From: Malacoraja senta
Lineage: Eukaryota
DNA: 64,000 bases
NCBI GenBank assembly: GCA_038087875.1
Contig: CM075992.1
Location: forward strand, 3,474,001 to 3,538,000
Direction of reading: 5' to 3'
The notes below the pieces were generated by a model. The model did not search any database. It was given only the letters and a program-made list of their open reading frames with translations, and had not been told where the DNA came from. Shown in pieces: positions 1-62,773 of this stretch. The translations under genes and the position numbers were made by a program. The first letter of the stretch is position 1. Each line of letters opens with the position of its first letter.

Positions 1-89
1 TCCTCATCATGCTTCCGTTCAGCTTCTGTTCTCTGCTCTTTCACCTCTGAGCAGTCTTTGAAGTATTCGTAGCTGGACGGCTCAGGCAT
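1..89 (-). CDS. Probable first coding segment of an unidentified gene (MPEPSSYEYFKDCSEVKEQRTEAERKHDE...), running off the left edge
   Basis: Non-repetitive sequence. The ATG (+ strand cat, 87-89) is the first Met after an upstream in-frame TGA, and the frame is open to the window edge. An acceptor-like ttttttaattctttacag puts the exon start at 317. Product not recognised. Confidence 0.4.
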   Translation of the reverse strand, partial: MPEPSSYEYFKDCSEVKEQRTEAERKHDE

Positions 90-670
90 GCCGCTGATTC
101 TTCGTTGGAGAGGGAATATACGACACAAATCTTTCGGACACTGGAGGAGCCTTGATTTAAGCAATTCCTCTGCCCAATTGAAATATCAGAAAACCACCAA
201 CTTGCACCAACTTCTCCATTTCCTCCAATTATGTAACTTAAAGATGATCATTTGCCGTGAGTTCTGCTGTGCTCAGCACATGCGAGCTTGCGACATAACA
301 GCAAAAAAAACGCACGCCTGTAAAGAATTAAAAAACTTATGGCCAGTCTATTTTGCTCTAAACATTATTCCCTTAACATGTATCTATACACTGTAAATGG
401 CTCGATTGTAATCACGTATTGCCTTTCCGCTGACTGTTTAACCCGGAACAAAAAGATTGTCACTGTACCTCGGTACACGTGACAATAAACTACACTGAAA
501 CTCCTTATCAATCTTCCTGAGTTGGACAAAACTTGGCCCTTTTGTGAAAGAAAGAGTTCTGTTTCCTTTAAGAGTCAAGAGTGTTTTATTTTCATATGTC
601 CCGGACGGGACAATGAAATTCTTACTTGCGGCAGCACAACAGAATATGTGAATATGTAAACACCTTTATT

Positions 671-724
671 GTGGTGGGAGATTGCAACCTTCACGTGGTC
701 CGCCCTGTTTCGACGAATGCAATC
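671..724 (+). ncRNA. Minimal HDV-like ribozyme (family A)
   Basis: P1 GUGGUGG/CCGCCCU (GGGGUGG in other copies, G1-U wobble), P2 GAUUGCA/UGCAAUC, P3 ACC/GGU, L3 UUCACGU, reduced P4 (GUUUCGA), J4/2 CGAA. Confidence 0.75.
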
Positions 725-800
725 AACCCGGCGTTACAATCAAATAAGATTAAATAGAACAAGTTGTCCTACAACTTTAGGCTGTGCACACCATACGCAG
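671..800 (+). mobile_element. Ribozyme-headed short retroposon, family A (3' tail eroded)
   Basis: Same sequence as the - strand copies at 2143-2284, 49593-49987 and 56704-56832. HDV-like fold at 671-724. Confidence 0.8.
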
Positions 801-803
801 CAT

Positions 804-878
804 TTATTACCCTTGTAGTATTTCTATTACCCTCGTAGTATTTTTTATTACCCTTGTAGTATTTTTATTACCCTCGGA
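804..878 (+). repeat. Minisatellite, about 21-bp unit (tttattacccttgtagta..), about 3.5 copies
   Basis: Direct reading of the tandem units. Confidence 0.8.
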
Positions 879-1049
879 GTATTTTCCACAGCACTTTAGA
901 AACAACAACACATGGTTGGTGAAAACCAAGACGACTCCAATTGCTGGAAATCGAAAAGGAAAACAGAAACCGCTGGAAACAATTAATAAGGCTGGGCAGA
1001 ATCTGTGGATTGAGAAACTGTTAAGACTTCAGTTTGATAGCCCTTAATT

Positions 1050-1378
1050 TTGTTTAGTTTGGTATAGTTTAGAGATACAGCGTGGAAACAGGCGCTCCGG
1101 CCCACCGGGTCCACGCCGACCGGCGATCCCCGCACACTGACACTATCCTACACCCACGAGGGACAAGTTTTACATTTACTAAAGCCACTTAACCGACAAA
1201 CCTGTGCGTCTTTGGAGTGTGGGACGAAACTGAAGATCTCGTAGAAAACGCACGCAGGTCACGGGGAGAATGTACAAACTCCGTACAGACAGCACCCGTA
1301 GTCAGGATCGAACCCGGGTCTCCGGCGCTGCATTCGCTGTAAAGCAGCAACTCTACCGCTGCGCCACCGTGCCGCCCC
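1050..1378 (-). mobile_element. HE1-type tRNA-derived SINE, full length. One of about two dozen copies or fragments (e.g. 4656-4960+, 9520-9717-, 21407-21763+, 23709-24005+, 24683-25000+, 35870-36175-, 40365-40615+, 46362-46688-, 48058-48360+, 48725-48998-, 55383-55665-, 59876-60215-, 62740-63620+)
   Basis: tRNA-like head with box A (tggcgcagcggtag) and box B (ggttcgatcc), a conserved core, a CR1-like 3' end (gggccgaagggcctgtttcc) and a (ctaaa)n tail. Confidence 0.9.
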
Positions 1379-1455
1379 AATGCTCATAGTAAAGGCACAA
1401 CTTTATTATGCTGGCGGGAGTGGAAGAGTCACTGTCAGTATGGTCATGTACTTAC

Positions 1456-1689
1456 CAGCTCCTCGCGGCCCCACTCAATTATATTGTGCACAGGGAGTAT
1501 ACCTCTACATGAGTAGCTAATCACACAGCTAACCACATAGTCACTTGCACCGGTTCTTATCGTGTCCAGAACAGACTTGTTTTTCTCTATCTGTGGTTCT
1601 ACTTGGTTTTGTGCCTCCCTCCATCCCTGTTTACCCACAACATCCTTTGCAGTTCTGCAGAACCACCTGTTGGTCATTAGCTGGCAATT
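1456..1689 (-). other. Candidate exon, 234 nt, open in phase 0 (NCQLMTNRWFCRTAKDVVGKQGW...IIEWGREEL)
   Basis: Acceptor ctttacttgcttag, donor CTG|gtaagt, length divisible by 3, non-repetitive. Protein not recognised; it could be a UTR exon or chance. Confidence 0.25.
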
Positions 1690-2027
1690 CTAAGCAAGTA
1701 AAGCAGGCTCACTGGGGCAACATGCAATCTGTCATTGTCCACATTAACTCTTAAACTCACATCCTCCTCTGCATTCCTGGCAGCATCAGTGGAGGGATAT
1801 AGACCTTGGGTCGGGACCCTACTTCAGTCTGGTGGGGCAGAGGAGAGATAGGGGGTGATGAGAGGTGAGCAGAAGGGGTGGGGCAAGATTTGATGATGAT
1901 CAACATGATAAGCTCATTCAGAGTCCCCTTGTGGTACAAAGTGGTCAGAGACATTGAATAATGAGGATTACAGCGATGATCAGCACGAAGATAGATCCAT
2001 AATGTAATGTTGATTCCCAAAGTCCAC

Positions 2028-2640
2028 CGGGGCTGTCATATGCTGAGAGAATGGAGCGGCTGGGCTTGTACACTCTGGAATTTAGAAGGATGAGAGGGGA
2101 TCTTATTGAAACATATAAGATTATTAAGGGTTTGGACACGCTTCTTCTTCTTCTCGCGTATGGCGTGCACAGCCTAAAGTTGTAGGACAACTTGTTCTGT
2201 TTGATCTTATTTGATTGTGCATGCCAGGTTGATTGCATTGGTTGAAACAGGGCAGACCAAGTGAAGGTTGCGATCTCCCACCCCGTTTGGACATGCTAGA
2301 AGCAGGAAACATGTTCCCAATGTTGGGGGAGTATAGAACCAGGGGCCACAGTTTAAGAATAAGCAGTAAGCCATTGAGAAGGGAGATAAGGAAAAACTTT
2401 TTCACACAGAGAGTTGTGAGTGTGTGGAATTCTCTGCCTCAGAGGGTGGTGGAGGCTGGTTCTCTGGATGCTTTCAAGAGAGAGTTAGATAGAGCTTTTA
2501 GGGATAGTGGAGTCAGGGGATATGGAGAGAAGGCAGGAACGGGGTACTGATTGGGGATGATCAGCCATGATCAAATTGAATGGCGGTGCCGAATGGCCTA
2601 TTCCTGCACCTATTGTCTGTTGTCTATTGACTATTGTCTA
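2028..2640 (+). mobile_element. HER1/CR1-clade LINE 3' fragment. Other copies: 4017-4290+, 5521-6026+, 10913-11406+, 12580-12953+, 13210-13545-, 15650-15963+, 16455-16755-, 18915-19270-, 31010-31410+, 36745-37125-, 49697-49967+, 53460-53740+, 54951-55260+
   Basis: RT C-terminus RTRGHSLRI..FFTQRVVSVWNSLPQ..FKRELD, a conserved 3' UTR and a (ctattgt)n or (tttctatg)n tail. Confidence 0.92.
2143..2284 (-). mobile_element. Ribozyme-headed short retroposon, family A, full length
   Basis: Inserted in a CR1 with a 13-bp TSD gtttggaca(c/t)gct (2130-2142 / 2285-2297). Begins GGGGTGG and ends catacgc..(aag)n. Confidence 0.88.
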
Positions 2641-2731
2641 CTGCACCAATTAAAAGGCCACCAGCTACTTCCTTCATGAAACCCTTACGAATGACTTAGA
2701 ATTTTCCTGATCTTATTAACCTCTTGGGATA

Positions 2732-2862
2732 GACAAAAGTGCTGGAGAAACTCAGCGGGTGCAGCAGCATCTATGGAGCGAAGGAAATAGGCAACGTTTC
2801 GGGCCGAAGCCCTTCTTCAGACTTTTGTCTACCTTCGATTTTCCAGCATCTGCAGTTCCTTC
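2732..2862. mobile_element. Penelope-like terminal fragment (inverted pair) inserted in env
   Basis: Flanked by the 16-bp duplication ttaacctcttgggata (2716-2731 / 2863-2878). Confidence 0.8.
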
Positions 2863-3275
2863 TTAACCTCTTGGGATATGTGGGCTGCCAAATTGGTTGT
2901 GTTGGAGGACTCATCAGGGATGTAGGTGCAGCATTCTTGCCCTATTATGGCACCTTTTTCGGCCAAAATAAAGTCCAAAGCCGTGCGATTCTGCAAGGCC
3001 TCGGTGCGGAGTGTAACCAGCTTGGCCGTCACAGAGGAGAGGGCCTTCTGCGTATCCGTAAGGGCATTTGCGGTTTCCTTAGCCAGTTTCTCCATAGCCG
3101 ATGCCATGTTGATCAGTTCTCGTGAGGCGCGGGCCGTCCCATAGAAGGGAAAGGCAATCATCCAAAACCGTTGAGATTCGGATATGCCTCGTTTGGACCG
3201 TAAGGGGAAGGATAACTCGGCCACCTGTACCCTAGTTCCAGCCTACACACTAGGGGACAATTTACAGACGCCAAT

Positions 3276-3368
3276 GGGATGCAGGCAGAAGCCTCCACGT
3301 GGCGCATCCCGGGCAATGCTGACGACAGGAACTGTACCGCAGTGACCGACTGAAGCAGCCAATTCTGC
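3276..3368 (+). ncRNA. HDV-like ribozyme (family B), canonical fold
   Basis: P1 GGGAUGC/GCAUCCC (3276-82 / 3304-10), P2 GCAGAA/UUCUGC (3285-90 / 3363-68), P3 GCC/GGC, L3 UCCACGU, P1.1 GG, long P4 region, J4/2 GCCAA. Confidence 0.88.
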
Positions 3369-3443
3369 AACCACCGACCGTCAACCGTCACTGACCGACC
3401 GGAAAGACGTGATGTGGAAGATGGCCGGACACGAGGAAGAAGA
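3276..3443 (+). mobile_element. Ribozyme-headed short retroposon, family B (168 nt)
   Basis: Inserted in an HE1 SINE with a 12-bp TSD acaga(c/t)gccaat (3264-3275 / 3444-3455). Tail ggacacgaggaagaag. Confidence 0.88.
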
Positions 3444-5140
3444 ACAGATGCCAATTAACCTACAAACCCGCACCTCTTTGGAGTGTGGGAGAACAGCACC
3501 TGGAGTCAGGAGTTTGTACGTTCTCCCCGTGACCACGTGGGTTTCCTCCGGGTGCTCCGGTTTCCTCCCACGTCCCAAAGACGTGCGGGTTTGTAGGTTA
3601 ATTGGCCCTCTGTAAATTCCCTCTAGTGTGTAGGGAGTGGATGAGAAAGTGGGATAACGGATTACTGGCATGAACGGGTGATCGAAGGTCAGCGCGTACC
3701 CGGTGGGCCCAAGGGACCATTTTCATACAGCATCTTTCAAACAACCAGTAGACTCAGCGATGTTAAGAAAATTAAGCGTCACTTCTTGGTCGCTTTCGAC
3801 GTTTTTGTCTCGTCTATGTTGGGGGAGCAAATATAAAGCGGTTTGGCTGACAGCCGGGAACTATCCAATGAGTGACTGAAGCTAGACACAAAACGCTGGA
3901 GTAACTCAGCGGGACAGGCGGCATCTCTGGAGAGAAGGAATTGGTGACGTTTTTCGAGTCGAGCCCGAGTCTGAAGAAGGGTCTCGACCCGAAACCTCAC
4001 CCATTCCTTCTCTCCAGGACTGAGATGAGAAAAACATTTTTCACACAGAGAGTGGTGAATCTCTGGAATTCTCTGCCACAGAATGTAGTTGAGGCCAGTT
4101 CATTGGCTATATTTAAGAGGGAGTTAGATGTGGCCCTTGTGGCTAAAGGGATCAGGGGGTATGGAGAGAAAGCAGGTACAGGATACTGAGTTGGATGATC
4201 AGCCATGATCACATTGAATGGCGGTGCAGGCTCGAAGGGCCGAATGGCCTACTCCCGCACCTATTTTTCTATGTTTCTATGTTTCTATGAGATGCTGCCT
4301 GTCCCGCTGAGTTACTCCAGCATTTTGTGTCTATCTTTGGTTTAAACCAGCATCTGCAGTTCCTTCAGACACGAGTGACTGAAGCATTTGTTTAATTTAC
4401 GATTGGTTGGTGGGGGAGGAAGGTTGCCATGGAGATTGATGTGTTGTCCCGCCAATGACAGGAGGATGGGGGGGCGGTGAGAGGTTGGAGACGGGGGAAC
4501 GTGTGATGACTTTAGCTCCAGCTGGCAACCATTTCAGTAGTTGCATTTGGGATGTCATAGACATTTGCAACACAGAGGTACGAACATCGATTTCTCTAAC
4601 TTCAAGTAACCCCTGCATTCATTCCCTCTCTCTCCATCCATCACCCACCCATGGTGGGCACGGTGAAGCAGCGGTAGAGTTGCTGCCTCACAGCGCCAGA
4701 GACCCGGGTTCGATCCTCACTACGGGTGCTGTCTGTACGGAGTTTGCACGTTCTCCCCGTGACCTGCGTGGGTTTTCTCCGAGATCTTTGCTTTCCTCCC
4801 GCACTCCAAAGACGTACAGGTTTGTGGTTAATTGGCTTGTATATGTGTAAACTGTTCCTAGTGTGTTTAGGATAGTGTTAGTGTGCGGGGATTGCTGGTC
4901 GGTGCGGACTCGGTGGGCCGAAGGGCCTGTTTCCACGCTGTATCTCTAACCTAACCTAAACCCTAGTCGTACCAGCTTCAAAGTCGTCTTATTGTTGAAC
5001 TCGTTCTCCCCCAACAAACAGCTAACAATGACCTACTTCTTTATTATCGTTACCTTTTTGCATATCTTTCATTCATTTGCTCTATATCTCTCTACGCCAC
5101 CATCTATTTATCTCGTTCCTCTTTTCCCTGACCCTCGAGT

Positions 5141-5171
5141 CTGAAGAAGGGTCTCGACCCGAAACGTCACC
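5141..5171 (+). ncRNA. Minimal hammerhead ribozyme core of a Penelope-like element. Further cores at about 7922-7949-, 8920-8947-, 10251+, 19880+, 25085+, 30034+, 37923-37950-, 38965+, 41439+, 45753-45780-
   Basis: CUGAAGA, stem II (GGGUC-UC-GACCC or GGGU-UUCG-GCCC), GAAAC, then GUC or GUU. Lies downstream of GIY-YIG coding fragments, as known for PLE hammerheads. Confidence 0.75.
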
Positions 5172-6026
5172 AATTCCTTCTCTCCAGGAGACGCTGCCTG
5201 TCCCGCTGAGTTTACTCCAGCTTTTGATGTCTATCTTCCAGTTTACCAACATATCCTCGGCACAGAGCAATGTAGCGGATGGATGGTTGTGACAGTAACT
5301 CAAAGGGTCGATGGCCCATTAGGACTTCCTCTTCAGCCAACCTGTCAGCTACTGTAGGATCTTCATTCCAGACATGTTCTCCCTTGGGCCAGTTCCCAGC
5401 CTCTACTGCAGTTAGAGTCGATGATGTCTACTTTGTAAGCATTTCAGTCCCATTAACTCTCAAACTTGGATAGAAATGCTCATAAAAAAGTGCTGGAGTA
5501 ACTCAGCGAGTCAGGCAGCATTGAGGGAGTGCAGCGTAGGTTTACAAGGTTAATTCCGGGATGGCGGGACAGTCATATGCTGAGAGAATGGAGCAGCTGG
5601 GCTTGTACACTCTGGAGTTTTAGAAGGATGAGAGGGGATCTCATTGAAACATATAAGATTGTTAAGGGCTTGGACACGCTAGAGGCAGGAAACATGTTCC
5701 CGATGTTGGGGGAGTCCAGAACCAGGGGCCACACACAGTTTAAGAATAAGGAGTAAGCCATTTAGAACGGAGACGAGGAAACACTTTTTCTCACAGAGAG
5801 TGGCGAGTCTGTGGAATTCTCTGCCTCAGAGGGCGGTGGAGGCAGGTTCTCTGGATGCTTTCAAGAGAGAGCTAGATAGGGCTCTTAAAGATAGCGGAGT
5901 CGGGGGATATGGGGAGAAGGCGGGAACGGGGTACTGATTGGGGATGATCAGCCATGATCACATTGAATGGCGGTGCTGGCTCGAAGGGCCAAATGGCCTA
6001 CTCCTGCACCTATTGTCTATTGTCTA

Positions 6027-6190
6027 TCTGTGGAGAACATGGATAGGTGACGTTTCACAGAGTGCTGGAGTAACTCAGCGGGTCAGGCAGCATCTGTGGT
6101 GAACATGGATAGGTGACGTTTCACAGAGTGCTGGAGTAACTCAGCGGGTCAGGCAGCATCTGTGGAGAACATGGGATAGGTGACGTTTCG
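6027..6190. repeat. 66-bp tandem repeat (about 2.5 copies) derived from the PLE terminus
   Basis: Units start at 6027, 6093 and 6159. Confidence 0.8.
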
Positions 6191-6899
6191 GTTTGGGACC
6201 CTTCAGGTTGATTGTAGCAGGGGAACGGGAGCTGGAAGTGAGCTGGGGGCAGGACAAAGGTGGATACAAAGGTGCTGGAATTACTCAGCGGTTCAGGCAG
6301 CATTTCCGGAGAAACATGAAAAGGTAATGTTTCCGGTCGGGACCCTTCTTCAGAATGATGCCTAAAGTAGGGTCCTGAAATCTCACCTCTACATGTTCTC
6401 CAGAGATGCTGCCTGAGCTGCTGAGTTACTGCAGCACGACTCAGCGGGTGAGGCAGCATCTCTAGGGAACATGGTGAGGATCTCCAGAAACCAAGAACCG
6501 CTGATGGTGGCTTTATGTAAACCAGCATTTGCAGTTCCTTGATTCTACAAGTGATGGGTGGATACAGGTGAGGGGAGGGGTGGGGCTTCTGTAATATTTT
6601 TCACATCGCTATGTGATTGATAACTAAAGAGATGCATTGTAGTCCCTTTTACTTAAGGGGAAAGGCGGAATATAATTTACTCTTTGGTCTTCCTTAGAAG
6701 GCTTAGTAAATTCGGCCATGTCGCACTGGTGTCAAAAATCATAAATGGGTAAACACAGTTTCTTGCCCTGAGTAGGGAAATCGAGAACCAGAGGACATAG
6801 GTTTATGGTGAGGGGGAAATGGTCCTAATAGGAACCAGTGGGATAACTTTTTTACACAAAGGGTGGCGGGTGTATGGAGTGAGCTGGCGGAGGAGGTAT

Positions 6900-6980
6900 C
6901 TTCTTCTTGCATATGGCGTGCACAGCCTAACAAAACACTACATCTATTTGTTTGTGCACGTTGGGTTGATTGCATTCGTG
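6900..6980 (-). mobile_element. Family A retroposon, 5'-truncated
   Basis: cttcttcttgcatatggcgtgcacagccta...gttgattgcattcgt matches the other copies. Confidence 0.75.
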
Positions 6981-7857
6981 GCATTTGAGGCAGGGACTAT
7001 CGCAACGTTTAAGAAGCTTTTAGACAGGTATGTGGATAGGACAGGTTGGAGGGATATGGGCCAAAAGCGGGCAGGTGGGACTAGTGTGGAGTGGGTGTGG
7101 TCGGTGTAGGCAAGTTGGGCCGAAGGGCCTGTTTCCGTGCAGTATCAGTCTGTGACTCTAGTGAGCAGCTACAGTGGGGGAACACTGGTTTCAAGATATC
7201 ACTTGATTCACAAGCTCTGTCATTGCTCAGAAAATCTCTCGCCTCCACAATGTCACAGCTTCCACCTATGTACTCTGAGACGTCACACTCCCTCATGCTG
7301 TGCATGGTTGGGTTCCAACACCTCTCTGCCTGCCCGTTTGAGGTGACAATGTTAGCACGGACTGTTTATTTTCAGACCAGATCTGTCTTTATTTGCAACT
7401 TCCCCTCAGAGCAGCTTAGTGGGACCAAGTGAATGGGTGAATGGGTGAAGATAGACACAGAATGCTGGAGTAACTCAGCGGGACAGGCAGCATCTCTGGA
7501 GAGAAGGAATGGGTGACGTTTCGGGTCGAGACCCTTCTTCAAACTTTCAAATGCTTCATAGTTCACAATAAGGCCATAAGGAATAGTCGTAGATTTAGGC
7601 CATTCGGCCCATCAAGTCTACTCAGCCATTCGATCATGGCTGATCTATCCCTCCCTCCTAACCCCATTCTCCTGCCTTCTCCCTGTAACCTCTGAACCCC
7701 TGTACTAACCAAGAATGTACAGGTAATCATGAATCACGGGTAGCCAAAATGTTCATCATGCTAGTGTGCGGGCATCGCCAGTCGGCGTGGACTCTCTCGG
7801 TTGGCCAAAGGGCCTGTTTCTGCGCTGTCCCTTGAAACTAAACCAAGCTAAATTAAA

Positions 7858-8080
7858 GGTAGACAAAAATGCTGGAGAAACTCAGCGGGTGAGGCAACAT
7901 CTATGGAGCGAAGGATTAGGTGACGTTTCGGGTCGAGACCCTTCTTCAGACGTCTGAAGAAGGGTCTCGACCTGAAAGGTCACCTATTTCTTCGCTCCAT
8001 AGATGCTGCCTCACCCGCTGAGTTTCTCCAGCATTTTTGTCTACCTTCGATTTTTCCAGCATCTGCAGCTCTTTCTTAAA
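7858..8080. mobile_element. Penelope-like terminal repeats in inverted (palindromic) arrangement
   Basis: The arms are reverse complements centred near 7951, each with a hammerhead core. Confidence 0.8.
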
Positions 8081-8561
8081 CAAGCTAAGTTAAAGGTCTC
8101 CAATTTCATTACAAACTATTCCCCGTAGCTCTTGAATTGAGGATGTTTCAAATTTATTTCATCAGGCGGTTATGAGTCAAACACATTACTTTGGACTGGA
8201 GTTCCATCACACGTGGCAATAGCACGAATCTCCTTCTCCAAGAGAGAGTTGTGGTCAAATTTGTTTTTATCAGAACCCAGTAGTTTCATGTTGACTAAAC
8301 TGAGTGTAGCAGTTCCGTCCAGATTTATTTCCTTAACAGTTTAAGTTTCGAAACTGTCATAGATGCTTTGAGCCATGCAGCACAACAACGTCATCGGCCC
8401 ACCAATTCTACATTAGCCATCAAGCACCCATCTCAATACTATCCCTCACGTTTTATTTTCCCTACCCTCATCGAACCCAGGTCCCTGCAGTAAACAAAAT
8501 GTGTAGGAAGAAACTGCAGATGTTGGTTTAAATCAAAGATAGACACAAAAAGCTGGAGTTA

Positions 8562-8875
8562 TAGCCCTGTCCCACGGTACGAGTTCATTCCAAGAGCTCT
8601 CCCGAGTTTTTAAAAAATCAGCCTCGTGGTAAGCACGGAGAATGAACGTGGCGGGTACGTCGGAGCTCGGGGACGTCTCTTAGCGGCTCATTACGCTAAC
8701 GGCAGGTACTCGGGAAGACTCGCTAATGGCAGGTAAGCACGGGAAGACTCGTGAAGATTTTTCAACACGAGAGCCCCGGGTACCGACGAGTGGCCATTAC
8801 CGTAAATCTCCGAGTTCGAATCAGGGCCAACTCGGGAGAGCTCTTGGAATGAACTCGTACCGTGGGACAGGGGTT
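8562..8875. mobile_element. PIF/Harbinger-like MITE
   Basis: Long TIRs N6-TGTCCCAC.../...GTGGGACA-N6, with a 3-bp TSD tta/taa splitting ctggag-taa-ctcagc. Confidence 0.8.
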
Positions 8876-29064: not shown

Positions 29065-30381
29065 GTGGGAATTGTACGGTGGAGGTGAATGAACCGAGAA
29101 GGCTGCAGTGGCGACTGTGGCATGCATGGGGTTAATGGAGGCTGGGAGAGTAATCCCAGGCAGGAACGCAGCTGGGGACCTTAGATTGTCGTCAGGAGCG
29201 AGGCTAGGATGCTTTGTGTCTGGCTCCCTTAACAAGACATTGGATCCGTGCCCAGGGGCAGTGGAGATGGGACGCGCTCCAGCTCAGTGTGGTGTCAGCA
29301 CAGCTCCCATGGCTGGAGGGGAGGTGGGGGAGGGGGGATGGGGATGGCTGGAAAGACCTTGTGTGTGCAGCCAACTGCTCTGTAATACTGCCGTGGGAAC
29401 CCCTTGACTCCAGCCCCAGTCCGAGCCAAAGAAACAGACACAGAAGCAACAGGCACCAAGTGCTGGAGTAACTCAGCCGGTCAGGCAGCATCTCTGGAGA
29501 ACGTGAACGGACGACTCACCCAGTCTGAAGATGGGTCTCGAACCGAAACGTCACCTATTCCTTCTCTCCAGAGATGCTGCCTGTCCCGCTGAGTTACTCC
29601 AGCCTTTTGTGTCTATCTTCCGTGTAAACCAGCATCTGCAGTTCCTTCCCACACAGAAGGGACTGCTGTGAATCCCGGCTCTAAGTAACTGCAGAGAAGG
29701 ATATAAAGTGCTGGGGTAACTCGGTAGGTCAGACAGCCTCTCTAGAGAACATGGATAGTCAAGAATGTTTTATTGTCATGTGTCCCAGATAGGACAATGA
29801 AATTCCTGCTTGCTGCAGCACAACAGAATATGTAAACATAGTACACAACGGGAGAAGAAAAACAGTTCAGTGTGTGTATATACACATGCACACATACTCA
29901 ATAAATAACAGATATAGTACAATAATGACAATAGTCTGTTGTAGTTCAGAGGTTATTAGTTGTTGTGTTTAATAGCCAGGTGGGTGTCGGGAAGACGCTG
30001 TTCCTATTTCAGGCTCCTGCACCTTCTCATGGTCTGAAGAAGGGTCTCGACCCGAAAACGTCACCCATTCCTTCTCTCCAGAGATGCTGCCTGTCCCGCT
30101 GAGTTTTTTGTGTGTCTATCTCCAGAGATGCTGCCTGACCTGCTGAGGGAGCTATCCCAGGTGGAATGCAGCTGGGAACCTTGGGAACATTATGCGTGGA
30201 ATATTAACACGGAACATGCTGTGTTCATTCTGTATTAACCAGCATCTACAGTTCCTCGTTTAAGAAGGAACTGCAGATGCTGGAAAATCGAAGGTAGAGA
30301 AAAGTGCTGGAGAAACTCAGCGGGTGCAGCAGCATCTATGGAGCGAAGGAAATAGGCAACGTTTCGGGCCGAAAACCCGGA

Positions 30382-30687
30382 AGGGTTTCGGCCCGAAACG
30401 TTGCCTATTTCCTTCAGGGTTTCGGCCCGAAACGTTGCCTATTTCCTTCAGGGTTTCGGCCCGAAACGTTGCCTATTTCCTTCAGGGTTTCGGCCCGAAA
30501 CGTTGCCTATTTCCTTCAGGGTTTCGGCCCGAAACGTTGCCTATTTCCTTCAGGGTTTCGGCCCGAAACGTTGCCTATTTCCTTCAGGGTTTCGGCCCGA
30601 AACGTTGCCTATTTCCTTCAGGGTTTCGGCCCGAAACGTTGCCTATTTCCTTCAGGGTTTCGGCCCGAAACGTTGCCTATTTCCTTC
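30382..30687 (+). repeat. Nine perfect tandem copies of a 34-bp unit (agggtttcggcccgaaacgttgcctatttccttc) inside an inverted PLE pair (about 30260-30750)
   Basis: Units start at 30382 and recur every 34 bp to 30687. Confidence 0.95.
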
Positions 30688-32210
30688 GGCTCCATAGATG
30701 CTGCCGCACCCACTGAGTTTCTCCAGCACTTTTGCCTATCTACAGTTCCTTGTTTCTTCCAGTAATTGTGGAGAATTGTTTTGAGGTGTGGTCTCCTCCC
30801 TGCAAACCCGCACGTCTTTGGAATGTGGGAGGAAACTCACGCGGTCAGAGAAAGAACGTGTAAACTCCACACAGACAGCACCCGAGGTCAGGATCGAACC
30901 CAGGGCAGCAGTTCTACCCGCTGCTCTGCCCTGAGAAGGCTTGGTGTCAAATTCCCTGTGATCGTATTGGCATGCAGCGGGTTGAGTTGGTTTATCTTTA
31001 TTAAAATACACTCTGGGGTTTAGAAGGATGAGCGGGCATCTCATTGAAACATATAAGATTGTTAAGGGCTTGGACACGCTAGAGGCAGGAAACATGTTCC
31101 CGATGTTGGGGGAGTCCAGAACCAAGGGCCACAGTTTAAGAATAAAGAGTAAGCCATTTAGAACGGAGACGAGGAAACATGTTTTCTCACAGAGAGTGGT
31201 GAGTCTGTGGAATTCTCTGCCTCAGAGGGCGGTGGAGGCAGGTTCTCTGGATGCTTTCAAGAGAGAGCTAGATAGGGCTCTTAAATACAGCGAAGTCAGG
31301 GGATATGGGGAGAAGGCAGGAACGGGGTACTGATTGGGGATGATCAGCCATGATCATATTAAATGGCGGTGCTGGCTCGAAGGGCCGAATGGCCTACTCA
31401 TGCACCATTTAAGCAACAAGACAGCGACACCTTACACGTGGACCGGAGGATAATTGTTGCATCAGTGATGTTTTGGAAACAAAGATGGCGGATGGCCATA
31501 GCAACAGGAGAAAGTCACATGTGACCACTCGCCCCCTGGGAACAGGAGAGTGCAAAACAAGAGAGATCCCAAAAGATCTGACAACCTTTTGATGCAGACT
31601 CAAGATCATTGCCCTCTGAGCAACATAGGAGTAGAATTATCCATTCGGCCCATCAAGTCTCCTCCACCATTCAATCATGGCTGATCTACCTCTTCCTCTG
31701 AACCCCATTCTCCTGCCTTCTCCCTATAGCCCCCCACATCTGTACTAATCCAGAAGCCATAAATCTCTGTTTTAAAAATACCAATTGAATTGGCCTCCAC
31801 CACCTTCTGTGGCAATGAATTCCATAGAAACATAGAAACATAGAAAATAGATGCAGGAGTAGGCCATTCGGCCCGACAAGCCAGCACTCCCATTCAATAT
31901 GAACATGGCTGATCATCCGTTCCTGCTTTCTCCCCATATCCCTTGATTCCATTAGCCCGAAGAGCTAAATCTAACTCTCTCTTGAAAACATCCAGTGAAT
32001 TGGCCTCCACTGCCTTCTGTGGCAGAGAATTCCACAGATTCACAACTCTCTGGGTGAAATATTCCAGATTCACCACTGCCTGGCTAAAGAAATTCCTCCT
32101 CATCTCCTTTCTATTCTTAGACTGTGCCCTCTGGTCCTAGACTCTCCCACTAGTGGAAACATTCAATGATGAACAAGCTGACATTTATCTAATGCTTGAA
32201 CTCAGGTTTA

Positions 32211-57252: not shown

Positions 57253-57319
57253 GGCCCCATAGCAGAAGCGTCCACGTGGCGGGGCTGGAAACTGGACGTA
57301 TCCTGAGCTAATTCTGCTA
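57253..57319 (+). ncRNA. HDV-like ribozyme (family E)
   Basis: P1 GGCCCC/GGGGCU (G1-U), P2 UAGCAGAA/UUCUGCUA, P3 GCG/GGC (one mismatch), L3 UCCACGU, P1.1 GG, P4 GGA-CGUA-UCC, J4/2 GCUAA. Confidence 0.8.
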
Positions 57320-57441
57320 CCACCATCATCTATTGCGACAAGTGATGGCTTCCACTGATTGTCGCCGGAAGCTTGCGTCCTTTTCAGGACGGACGATGAC
57401 GGCGAGGCCAACATTTGTAACAAGATGGACACAAAATGGAA
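57253..57441 (+). mobile_element. Ribozyme-headed short retroposon, family E (189 nt)
   Basis: Perfect 12-bp TSD tgcagtatctcc (57241-57252 / 57442-57453); tail ggacacaaaatggaa. Confidence 0.85.
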
Positions 57442-59860: not shown

Positions 59861-61380
59861 GTAAAGGGTTAATTTAGCTTGGAGATGCAGCGTGGAAACA
59901 GGCCCTTTGGCCCACCGGGACGGCACCGACAAGCAATCCCCGCACACTAACACAATCCGACACACACACACACACTAGGGCCAATCAACCTACAAACCTG
60001 CACGTCTTTGGAATGTGGGAGGAAACCGGAGCTTCCGTGGAAAACCCACGGGGTGAACGTGCGAACTCCGTACAGACAGCATCCGTAGTCGGGATGGAAC
60101 TTGTATATTTATTTATTTTTTTGAATAAAACTATTTGTATAATTGACAAAATATATGGTCAGGATGGAACCCGGGTCTCTGGTGCTGTAAGGCAGCAACT
60201 CTACCGCTGCACCAGCATGCTAATCCACGTCAATCAGTATTTACTGCTGGATTTTAATAGCTGCCATTATTTAGTTAGGGCCAAAATTCTTGTTTCCATT
60301 CTGGTCTTCTGGTTTTTTTCATCCCCTACATAGGGTAAACACAGTCTTTTACCCTATCTATTCCTGTCATGATCCTGTACACCTCTAAGATCACCACTCA
60401 TCCTCCTGCGCTCCAAAGAATAAAGTCCCATCTTGCCCAATCTCTCCCGACAGCTCTGGCCCTCGAGTCCTTCCGACATTGTTGAATCTTCTTTGCGCTT
60501 GTTCCAGCTTAATATCTCTCCTCTAAGCAGGGTGACCAAAACTGAACACCATACTCCAAATGTAGCCCCACAATGTCACAACATACTGTCCCCACTTCTA
60601 CACAAAATACGTTGACTTACGATGGACAATGTGTTGAAAACCACCATCACCACCCTATCTACCTGTGATGTCACTTTGCAGGAACTGTGTACCTGGATCG
60701 AGTGGATGTTTCCACTAGTGGGAGAGTCTGGGACCAGAGGTCATCGTCTCAGAATTAAAGGTCGTGCCTTTAGGAAGGAAATAAGGAGGAATTTCTTTCA
60801 TCAGAGGGTGGTGAATCTGTGGAATTCATTGCTACAAAGGCTGTGAAGGCCAAGTCAGTGGATATTTTCAATGAACAGATAGATAGATTCTTGATTAGTA
60901 CAGGGGTTATGGGGAGAAGGCAGGAGAGTGGGGTTCGGAGGGGGAGATCGATCAGCCATGATTGAATGGCAGAGTAGACTGGATGGGCTGAATGGTCTAA
61001 TTCTGCTCCTAGCATTTATGACCTTCTGAACCTACAACCATAGATCCCTCTGCCCCTACAATGTGCCCAAGAGCCCTGCTATTCACACTTTTTGATTAGC
61101 CAGAGTCATTCAAGCACAGATTAGGTCAATATAGTCTTTTACCCAGAGCAGGGGAATCGCGAGCCAAAGGATATGGGTTTAAGGTGATGGGGAAAGATTA
61201 AATAGGAACCTGAGGGGAAACCTTTTTTACACAAAGGGTGGTGGGTATACGGAACAAGCTGCCACAGGAGGTAGTTGAGATAAGTATCGCATTGTTTTAA
61301 AAACATTTGTACAGGTACATGGATAGGACAGGTTAGAATGATGTAGGTGAAAGCCAAGCAGGTGGGACTAGTGTAGATGG

Positions 61381-62083
61381 GGCATGTTGGTCGGTGTGGG
61401 CAAGTTGGGCCATGTTGGTCGGTGTGGGCAGGTTGGGCCATGTTGGTCGGTGTGGGCAAGTTGGGCCATGTTGGTTGGTGAGGGCAAGTTGGGCCATGTT
61501 GGTCAGTGTGGGCAAGTTGGGCCATGTTGGTCAGTGTGGGCAAGTTGGGCAATGTTGGTCGGTGTGGGCAAGTTGTGCCATGTTGGTTGGTGAGGGCAAG
61601 TTGGGCCATGTTGGTCAGTGTGGGCAAGTTGGGCAATGTTGGTCAGTGTGGGCAAGTTGGGCAATGTTGGTCGGTGAGGGCAAGTTGGGCCATGTTGGTT
61701 GGTGAGGGCAAGTTGGGCCATGTTGGTCAGTGTGGGCAAGTTGGGCCATGTTGGTCAGTGTGGGCAAGTTGGGCAATGTTGGTCGGTGTGGACAAGTTGT
61801 GCCATGTTGGTTGGTGAGGGTAAGTTGGGCCATGTTGGTCAGTGTGGGCAAGTTGGGCCATGTTGGTCAGTGTGGGCAAGTTGGGCAATGTTGGTCGGTG
61901 TGGGCAAGTTGGGCCATGTTGGTCGGTGTGGGCAAGTTGGGCAATGTTGGTCGGTGTGGGCAAGTTGGGCCATGTTGGTTGGTGTGGGCAAGTTGGGCCA
62001 TGTTGGTCGGTGTGGGCAAGTTGGGCCATGTTGGTCGGTGTGGGCAAGTTGGCCCATGTTGGTCGGTGTGGGCAAGTTGGGCC
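61381..62083 (+). repeat. 28-bp minisatellite (catgttggtcggtgtgggcaagttgggc, about 25 copies) expanded inside a CR1 3' UTR
   Basis: The unit is present once in other CR1 tails (13141-13168); CR1 sequence continues on both sides. Confidence 0.95.
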
Positions 62084-62773
62084 AAATGGCGTGTTTCTGT
62101 GCCGTATGACTCTATAACAACTATTGGTCAACCTGATTTTCTTCTCGTGTAGTGAGGAACTGCAGTTCCATGTTTAAACCGAAGATAGATAGATAAAATG
62201 CTGGAGTAACTCAGCGGGTCGGGCAGCATCTTTGGAGAAAAGGAATGGGTGACGTTTTGGGTCTGAAGGGTCACCTATTCCTTTCCTCTAGAGATGCTGC
62301 CTGACCTGCTGAGTTACTCCAGCATTTTGTGTCTACTGGTTTTCTGCTTTCAGGTCTGGGCTGGGTGGGTGCAGGGTGGATGTTGTCTCTGTAGGTGGAA
62401 GGTCTTTAATCCCTGCTAATTGTTCAGTTCTAATACCAGTGACGGCTCCCTTCTACTGCCTGAAACTTGTCCCTTTGTCTAACCTGGCAATATAATTTTT
62501 GCCGTGAAACTGCTTCTGACAGCCTCACAGTTGTTAATCCGATCCTGAATGATATCACAAAGGGGCGGGAGATATCAGGGTCGCTCCAGACAATTGTTGT
62601 GATTACTGGCTGACTCATTCATCCGATTTGCTCCCCACCATTGTTCCATTTGATTCCTGCCTTGGGCCAATATGACTTGGGTAACTATGTTATCGGATAG
62701 CTCGTTATGGAGGCAGCAGATTGAGTTTGTTCTATTAAGGTGCAGGTGGTGCAGCGGTAGAGTCGCTGCCTAA

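Follow-up and report, generated by a model that had tools for sequence, protein, structure and literature searches.

A dispersed retroposon family of Malacoraja senta, probably derived from a Vingi-like LINE, begins with a predicted HDV-like ribozyme

The systems closest to the one described here are the NARTc/RIME and L1Tc/ingi elements of trypanosomes (Pr77/L1TcRz; PMC4035085, PMC3383444), in which, as these reports describe, a short internal-deletion derivative of an Ingi-group LINE carries an HDV-like ribozyme as its first nucleotides, is flanked by a TSD of 11-12 nt and is inserted in dispersed fashion. The 168-bp element that we analyse here lies in a window of Malacoraja senta DNA (by window we mean the whole stretch analysed, 64,000 nucleotides in length) and is alike in all of these features, but its family inhabits a 1.9-Gb animal genome, its parent shows no RNase H and its ribozyme is a predicted one. 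Non-autonomous Vingi derivatives such as Vingi-1_EE (Kojima 2011, as reported in PMC5786205 and PMC4494074) share with it the bipartite structure, in which the two ends of a LINE are joined, this LINE being compact and having a single APE/RT ORF that lacks RNase H. Drosophila R2 SIDEs (PMC3414825), as described there, are likewise internally deleted and retain the 5' ribozyme and the 3' end of their parent; R2, however, is rDNA-specific and employs a restriction-like endonuclease, whereas the members of our family sit at unrelated insertion sites. Finally, the mammalian CPEB3 ribozyme (RF00622) has a P2 identical to that of our element and agrees with it at 16/19 nt over P2-P3-L3-P3', but our copy differs from it in P1, in a P1.1 of two pairs and in the greater length of P4, and it is multicopy and mobile where CPEB3 is a conserved single intronic locus.

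We propose that the 168 bp are a copy of a mini-LINE that combines the 5' end of a longer parent with its 3' end, that its HDV-like head likely frees the RNA at G1, and that LINE protein then reverse-transcribes this RNA from a tail shared with the parent, the copy in the window being a passive insertion. We regard this reading as highly probable. The features on which it rests are as follows.

3264..3275, + strand: 5' TSD
3276..3443, + strand: non-autonomous bipartite retroposon of 168 bp, internal-deletion derivative of a Vingi-like LINE
3444..3455, + strand: 3' TSD, with one C/T difference
3276..3385, + strand: LINE 5'-end part (element nt 1-110), 91-94% identical to the LINE copies L158 and L160
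3398..3443, + strand: LINE 3'-end part (element nt 123-168), with the last ORF codons, a short 3' UTR and the GAA tail, matching five LINE tails at 83-91% identity
3276..3368, + strand: HDV-like ribozyme fold, cut predicted at 3275/3276
3276-3282 / 3304-3310, + strand: P1, 7/7 Watson-Crick pairs, G1-C
3283-3284, + strand: J1/2
3285-3290 / 3363-3368, + strand: P2, 6/6 paired
3291-3293 / 3301-3303, + strand: P3
3294-3300, + strand: L3 UCCACGU, with U3294 as the U20 equivalent and G3299 as the G25 equivalent
3311-3312, + strand: P1.1 GG, partners C3295 and C3296
3313..3357, + strand: J1.1/4 and P4, with J1.1/4 being GCAA as in the Rfam HDV consensus
3358-3362, + strand: J4/2 GCCAA, with C3359 as the C75 equivalent and predicted general acid, and A3361 and A3362 as A77 and A78
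3283-3286 with 3291-3294, + strand: rival hairpin specific to this copy, created by A3284G and competing with P2 and P3

An earlier, sequence-only reading of this DNA had placed an HDV-like fold at the head of a TSD-flanked retroposon, with C3359 as the catalytic residue and a predicted cut at 3275/3276, and on these points we agree with it. A coordinate check also found the P1, P2, P3, L3, P1.1 and J4/2 blocks where it had put them, and the ribozyme does begin directly after the TSD, which ends at 3275, with G1 at 3276. The 12-bp TSD is likewise present, its copies being identical at 11/12 positions. Two points are to be corrected: the description of the ribozyme as unmutated holds for the named core blocks but not for the rest, where 7 other sites differ from the family majority, one of them in J1/2, and the family is represented by a single copy in the window.

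The 3276 copy has several features by which HDV-like ribozymes are recognized: a 7-bp P1 in which a G1-Y pair adjoins the cleavage site, as in the descriptor given in PMC6326823, the complementarity for a nested double pseudoknot of P2, P3 and P1.1, and equivalents of U20, G25, C75, A77 and A78. C3359 aligns to C75 of the Rfam HDV model, the residue to which PMC6326823 assigns the role of general acid. One design descriptor, the C-R-R-A rule with a purine right after C75, does not describe the copy, which has C3360 there, nor its relatives, which have C or U; the base following C75 is reported as flipped out in HDV (PMC6326823). Rfam scores of the copy are below gathering for HDV (RF00094, 28.4 vs 50 bits), CPEB3 (RF00622, 22.2 vs 35 bits, E 0.001) and HDV-F-prausnitzii (RF02682, 22.1 vs 44 bits). 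Majority-type siblings likewise remain under every Rfam gathering score, and no match at gathering level exists in the 64-kb window. A descriptor scan of both window strands returned the 3276 site as its single match, and the folding z-score of the whole region is 0.16, little signal being expected for a pseudoknot. Judged from its sequence, the head is a real HDV-like ribozyme fold and is probably catalytic.

The element belongs to a family of which the window holds one copy only. In a genome search 40 of 400 candidates were scored and 40/40 match at 95-100%; the exact 34-nt core pattern occurs at 127 places in the genome and the exact 23-nt tail pattern at 204, and the overlap of the two on contig C1 (10/19 and 10/29) gives a copy number of ~370, as a lower bound. 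Contigs from the runs of two other organisms contain the same family at a likeness of at least 90%. To study ends and TSDs we reduced 131 loci to 113 unique insertions; most of these were picked by their 5' similarity, and the fair set is the tail-selected one, which started with 30 loci and retains 27 after removal of 2 LINE tails and 1 duplicate. The exact 5' strand of P1 stands at the start of 84/113 unique copies (107/113 within 2 mismatches), and 24/27 tail-selected copies are 5'-complete. A TSD, mostly of 10-12 bp, was detected in 94/113 insertions and is flush with position 1 in 76, against 27/337 in a control with shuffled pairing. Copies that start at G1 beside the TSD are what would be expected if self-cleavage set the 5' end. 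As in other bipartite non-autonomous LINEs, the copies are scattered, carry TSDs and end in a simple repeat. Two internally deleted copies (L069 and L070), which have lost J4/2 and P2', recur with a 399-bp period within a minisatellite.

The parent LINE, absent from the sequence-only reading, was reached via the tail search, when two tail-selected loci were seen to run upstream into an RT gene. One of them (L160) is full length, with ~3,074 nt (3.07 kb), a flanking TSD and a single ORF with its ATG at nt 140; the second copy (L158) carries a 1.3-kb insertion. Element and parent both begin at G1 of the fold, beside unrelated flanks, and element nt 111-122 look like short local duplications. The L160 ORF encodes APE-like pieces (E 8e-6 and 0.012, below cut-off), an RT (RVT_1, E 1e-26, above cut-off) and a C-terminal Cys/His motif. 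No RNase H match was found in the three post-RT frames of the parent, and the RNase H Pfam is absent among the 120 of 587 RT homologues listed. The longest of the listed homologues are mostly APE+RT proteins of 900-1,050 aa, including some from Anolis and Branchiostoma, and one homologue from Anolis (P0115), with 939 aa and 53% identity, is presumably Vingi-1_Acar. Vingi elements have been described as lacking RNase H (PMC13708176), a description that the parent fits, and by its sequence it likely belongs to the Vingi clade. What the parent is already excludes a head derived from a small RNA. None of the three loci listed for ORFs has an intact parent ORF; the LINE copies that we inspected are broken and resemble one another at 91-97%, so that this LINE is probably no longer active. 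The genome has another Vingi-like LINE family (L163:2413-3677 and L164), with ~67% DNA and 60% RT identity to the parent, and no ribozyme head was found in it within the stretch fetched.

With such a parent, the route of mobilization can be outlined. A read-through transcript would fold into a double pseudoknot (after what is set out in PMC6326823, PMC6765202 and PMC4035085), and Mg2+-dependent cleavage at G1, with C3359 acting as general acid, would release the upstream host RNA from the element RNA. The protein of the parent LINE would then prime reverse transcription at the shared 3' tail, mobilizing the element in trans.

Support for the fold comes from relatives of the parent. An alignment-guided scan of metagenome contigs yielded 80 loci with related ORFs, and in L187, in L190-L192 (a single insertion) and in L193, L202, L241 and L262 an HDV-like head precedes the ORF match by ~330-390 nt, those of L187, L241, L262 and L202 being degenerate or variant when judged by eye and with Rfam. 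A strict scan found a head in 4/25 loci having a 5' ORF end, three of which are one insertion, and a uniform scan of the 80 loci gave 4 sense and 0 antisense matches; most other metagenome loci have no head within the stretch examined. In five distinct related heads 80/80 P1/P2/P3 cells are paired, a figure that overstates the support because the blocks were located by their pairing, and 22 extra pair types occur over 16 columns. The equivalents of U20, C22, G25, the P1.1 G and C75 are kept across these five heads with changed helices. The fold is maintained in the relatives through compensatory changes.

The window contains a further head of this kind:

57253-57440, + strand: second ribozyme-headed element (~185 bp), with a 6-bp P1, G1-U and a tail similar to that of the 3276 family

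This copy has a G-G mismatch in P3 and a shortened tail. Its family counts 2,003 candidates in the genome, of which 40 were scored, at 95-100%, and other copies of it exceed the CPEB3 Rfam gathering score; family A copies in the genome reach 35.1-37.5 bits on RF00622, for which gathering is 35. The two mini-element families have the same P2 and a near-identical L3. The parent of the 57253 family was sought among 8 LINE loci only.

The 3276 copy had been singled out as the best candidate for an active ribozyme. This is correct within the window, given the P3 mismatch of the other head, but it fails genome-wide, where the exact core recurs at so many places, where 9/27 tail-selected copies have an intact core (identical in 7), and where A3284G puts our copy at a disadvantage. 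Seven sites (3284, 3329, 3339, 3347, 3356, 3414 and 3416) set the copy apart from the family majority, and since the parent LINEs carry the majority state, all seven changes are derived. The first of them, A3284G, lets 3283-3286 pair with 3291-3294; with an intact P1, the G allele is found at 2 places (the 3276 copy and its twin, see below) and the A allele at 243. The predicted probability of P3 is 0.06 in this copy, against a median of 0.94 in the 56 intact copies folded (of 58), and that of the rival hairpin is 0.9, a structure that reaches 0.5 in 0/56 intact copies. The penalty predicted for A3284G, as rival hairpin over P3, is a modest ~1.3 kcal/mol. In the 3276 copy the native-compatible fold lies 5.8 kcal/mol above the free fold; the median of this gap in 52 copies is 4.5, and just one of them fares worse. 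This shared median gap stems from a pairing of G3312-C3314 with G3358-C3360, predicted in 4/4 copies with displayed folds, which traps C75, and because of it the whole family may be slow. Such C75-trapping pairing also figures as a hazard in PMC6326823, and upstream misfolding is reported to slow the human CPEB3 ribozyme ~250-fold (PMC8233481). Our fold probabilities come from ViennaRNA, which omits pseudoknots, so that the ranking of the 3276 copy is approximate, and P2 and P1.1, absent from the folding model, may outweigh the rival hairpin. On these predictions the 3276 copy would likely still cleave in vitro, though the rival hairpin probably makes the reaction slower or less complete than in copies of the majority type, and it probably cuts no better than its siblings.

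The seven changes have a peculiarity of their own, since all are A>G or T>C, against 87/368 in the family (0.236^7 ~ 4e-5, a post hoc figure). Four of the seven are found in L154, 315 kb away, and three in L005. This bias might reflect GC-biased conversion, a sub-lineage confined to this region or editing of the source RNA.

The surroundings of the 3276 copy are themselves made of repeats:

2868-3242, - strand: open frame like a retroviral envelope TM segment, an endogenous retrovirus remnant (best PDB match syncytin-2, E 4e-5), directly upstream of the setting of the element
3242..3491, - strand: older abundant short repeat split by the element, its halves contiguous in an intact copy

We take the split repeat to be V-SINE-like. 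A 100% identical twin of the 3276 copy lies 28.1 kb upstream, in a tandem duplication (window 1-8739 plus G000:C16:3436001-3474000) with a period of 28.1 kb, a length of at least 18.6 kb and 99-99.7% identity. Contig depth in run X19, possibly the source sample, is 76-86 for it vs ~38-44 for other pieces, which suggests that the duplication is real. Tandem arrays were also noted at window 30314-30755 (34-bp units) and 61235-62178 (28-bp units). A search for host exons with 111 of the 226 unmasked open frames of at least 40 aa gave 0 Pfam matches, a search that short exons could escape. We found no + strand transcript for the 3276 ribozyme to cut, and in contigs of a presumed RNA run, whose RNA nature is our guess, the family sequence is present and the 3276 copy absent. 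The 3276 copy is an ordinary passive insertion in an older repeat, and nothing points to a host function.

Other explanations deserve to be weighed against the ribozyme-headed mini-LINE. The head could be mainly an internal Pol II promoter starting at +1, with the fold being a ribozyme that is slow or only a vestige, or else protecting the 5' end as a cap does. Pr77 of L1Tc is reported to be promoter and ribozyme at once, the misfold that traps C75 is predicted in every family copy displayed, and 5' ends at G1 are as compatible with a promoter as with cleavage. Yet a promoter acting at the DNA level needs no paired helices, and the relatives conserve the U20, C22, G25, P1.1 G and C75 equivalents though their helices have changed; besides, the roles of promoter and ribozyme are not mutually exclusive. 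We consider a head that is mainly a promoter unlikely. It is a good deal less likely still that the 3276 copy stands out from its family as an active ribozyme, exapted or under selection, with a + strand transcript of the host as its target. One could invoke for this its intact named core blocks, the T-to-C change at 3356 that turns a G-U pair of P4 into G-C, the fact that none of its 7 changes falls in a core pair or removes a CpG, and its location within a duplication that is recent and spans 18.6 kb or more. However, a third of the unselected copies (9/27) are equally intact, our copy has accumulated its 7 changes vs a family median of 3, including the one that favours the misfold, the Pfam search of 111 open frames gave 0 matches, and the coding remnant closest to it lies on the - strand.

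To a parent of the RTE clade, or to an element that is a Pol III SINE, we assign a negligible probability. The GAA tail with TSDs of 10-12 bp would suit an RTE origin, and RTE-derived bipartite elements with ribozymes have been reported, but the LINE family found via DUF6451 is unlike the element (of 150 matches, 20 loci were compared with it, and none is significantly similar, best E 1.2) and the true parent was found directly; as to a SINE, no A/B boxes were detected by pattern, and the LINE 5' end suffices to explain the head. The DUF6451 LINE family (L031-L050, 772 candidates) is abundant, separate and unrelated to the 168-bp element.

The mini-LINE with a ribozyme head, and the Vingi-like parent from which it descends, lead to the question of CPEB3, a ribozyme that, to our knowledge, is found only in mammals. 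The 3276 copy is not a member of that family, as it scores 22.2 vs 35 bits, is multicopy and has no host exon found with it. A much closer match comes from the full-length Vingi-like element L191 (TSD of 14 bp), whose head (L190-L192, one insertion) obtains 55.6 bits on RF00622 (E 2e-12) and agrees at 35/37 consensus positions from P1 to P1.1. As only ~six invariant bases are described as required in HDV-like ribozymes (PMC8256844), convergence between L191 and CPEB3 is unlikely. We find it rather probable, from sequence comparison, that Vingi-type retrotransposons start with a clade-wide HDV-like ribozyme and that the mammalian CPEB3 ribozyme is a domesticated Vingi 5' end, a direction of descent that we infer. 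Vingi traces have been reported in human DNA as X12_LINE (PMC5753468). Our literature search found no statement of a link between Vingi and the CPEB3 ribozyme in the texts it covered, among them the CPEB3 ancestry paper, which mentions neither origin nor transposition; the link may nevertheless have been described before.

The importance of these observations lies in the family and in the CPEB3 link, not in the 3276 copy. The hundreds of natural variants of the family are a ready mutational library for HDV-type folding. Also, Vingi UTRs are reported to serve in gene-writing templates, whose design a self-cleaving 5' end would affect. The family would also add Vingi to those LINE clades whose 5' end is an HDV-like ribozyme, so that such a ribozyme would be present in all four clades known for bipartite non-coding derivatives (Kojima 2018 lists three), and it provides the CPEB3 ribozyme with an origin that can be tested.
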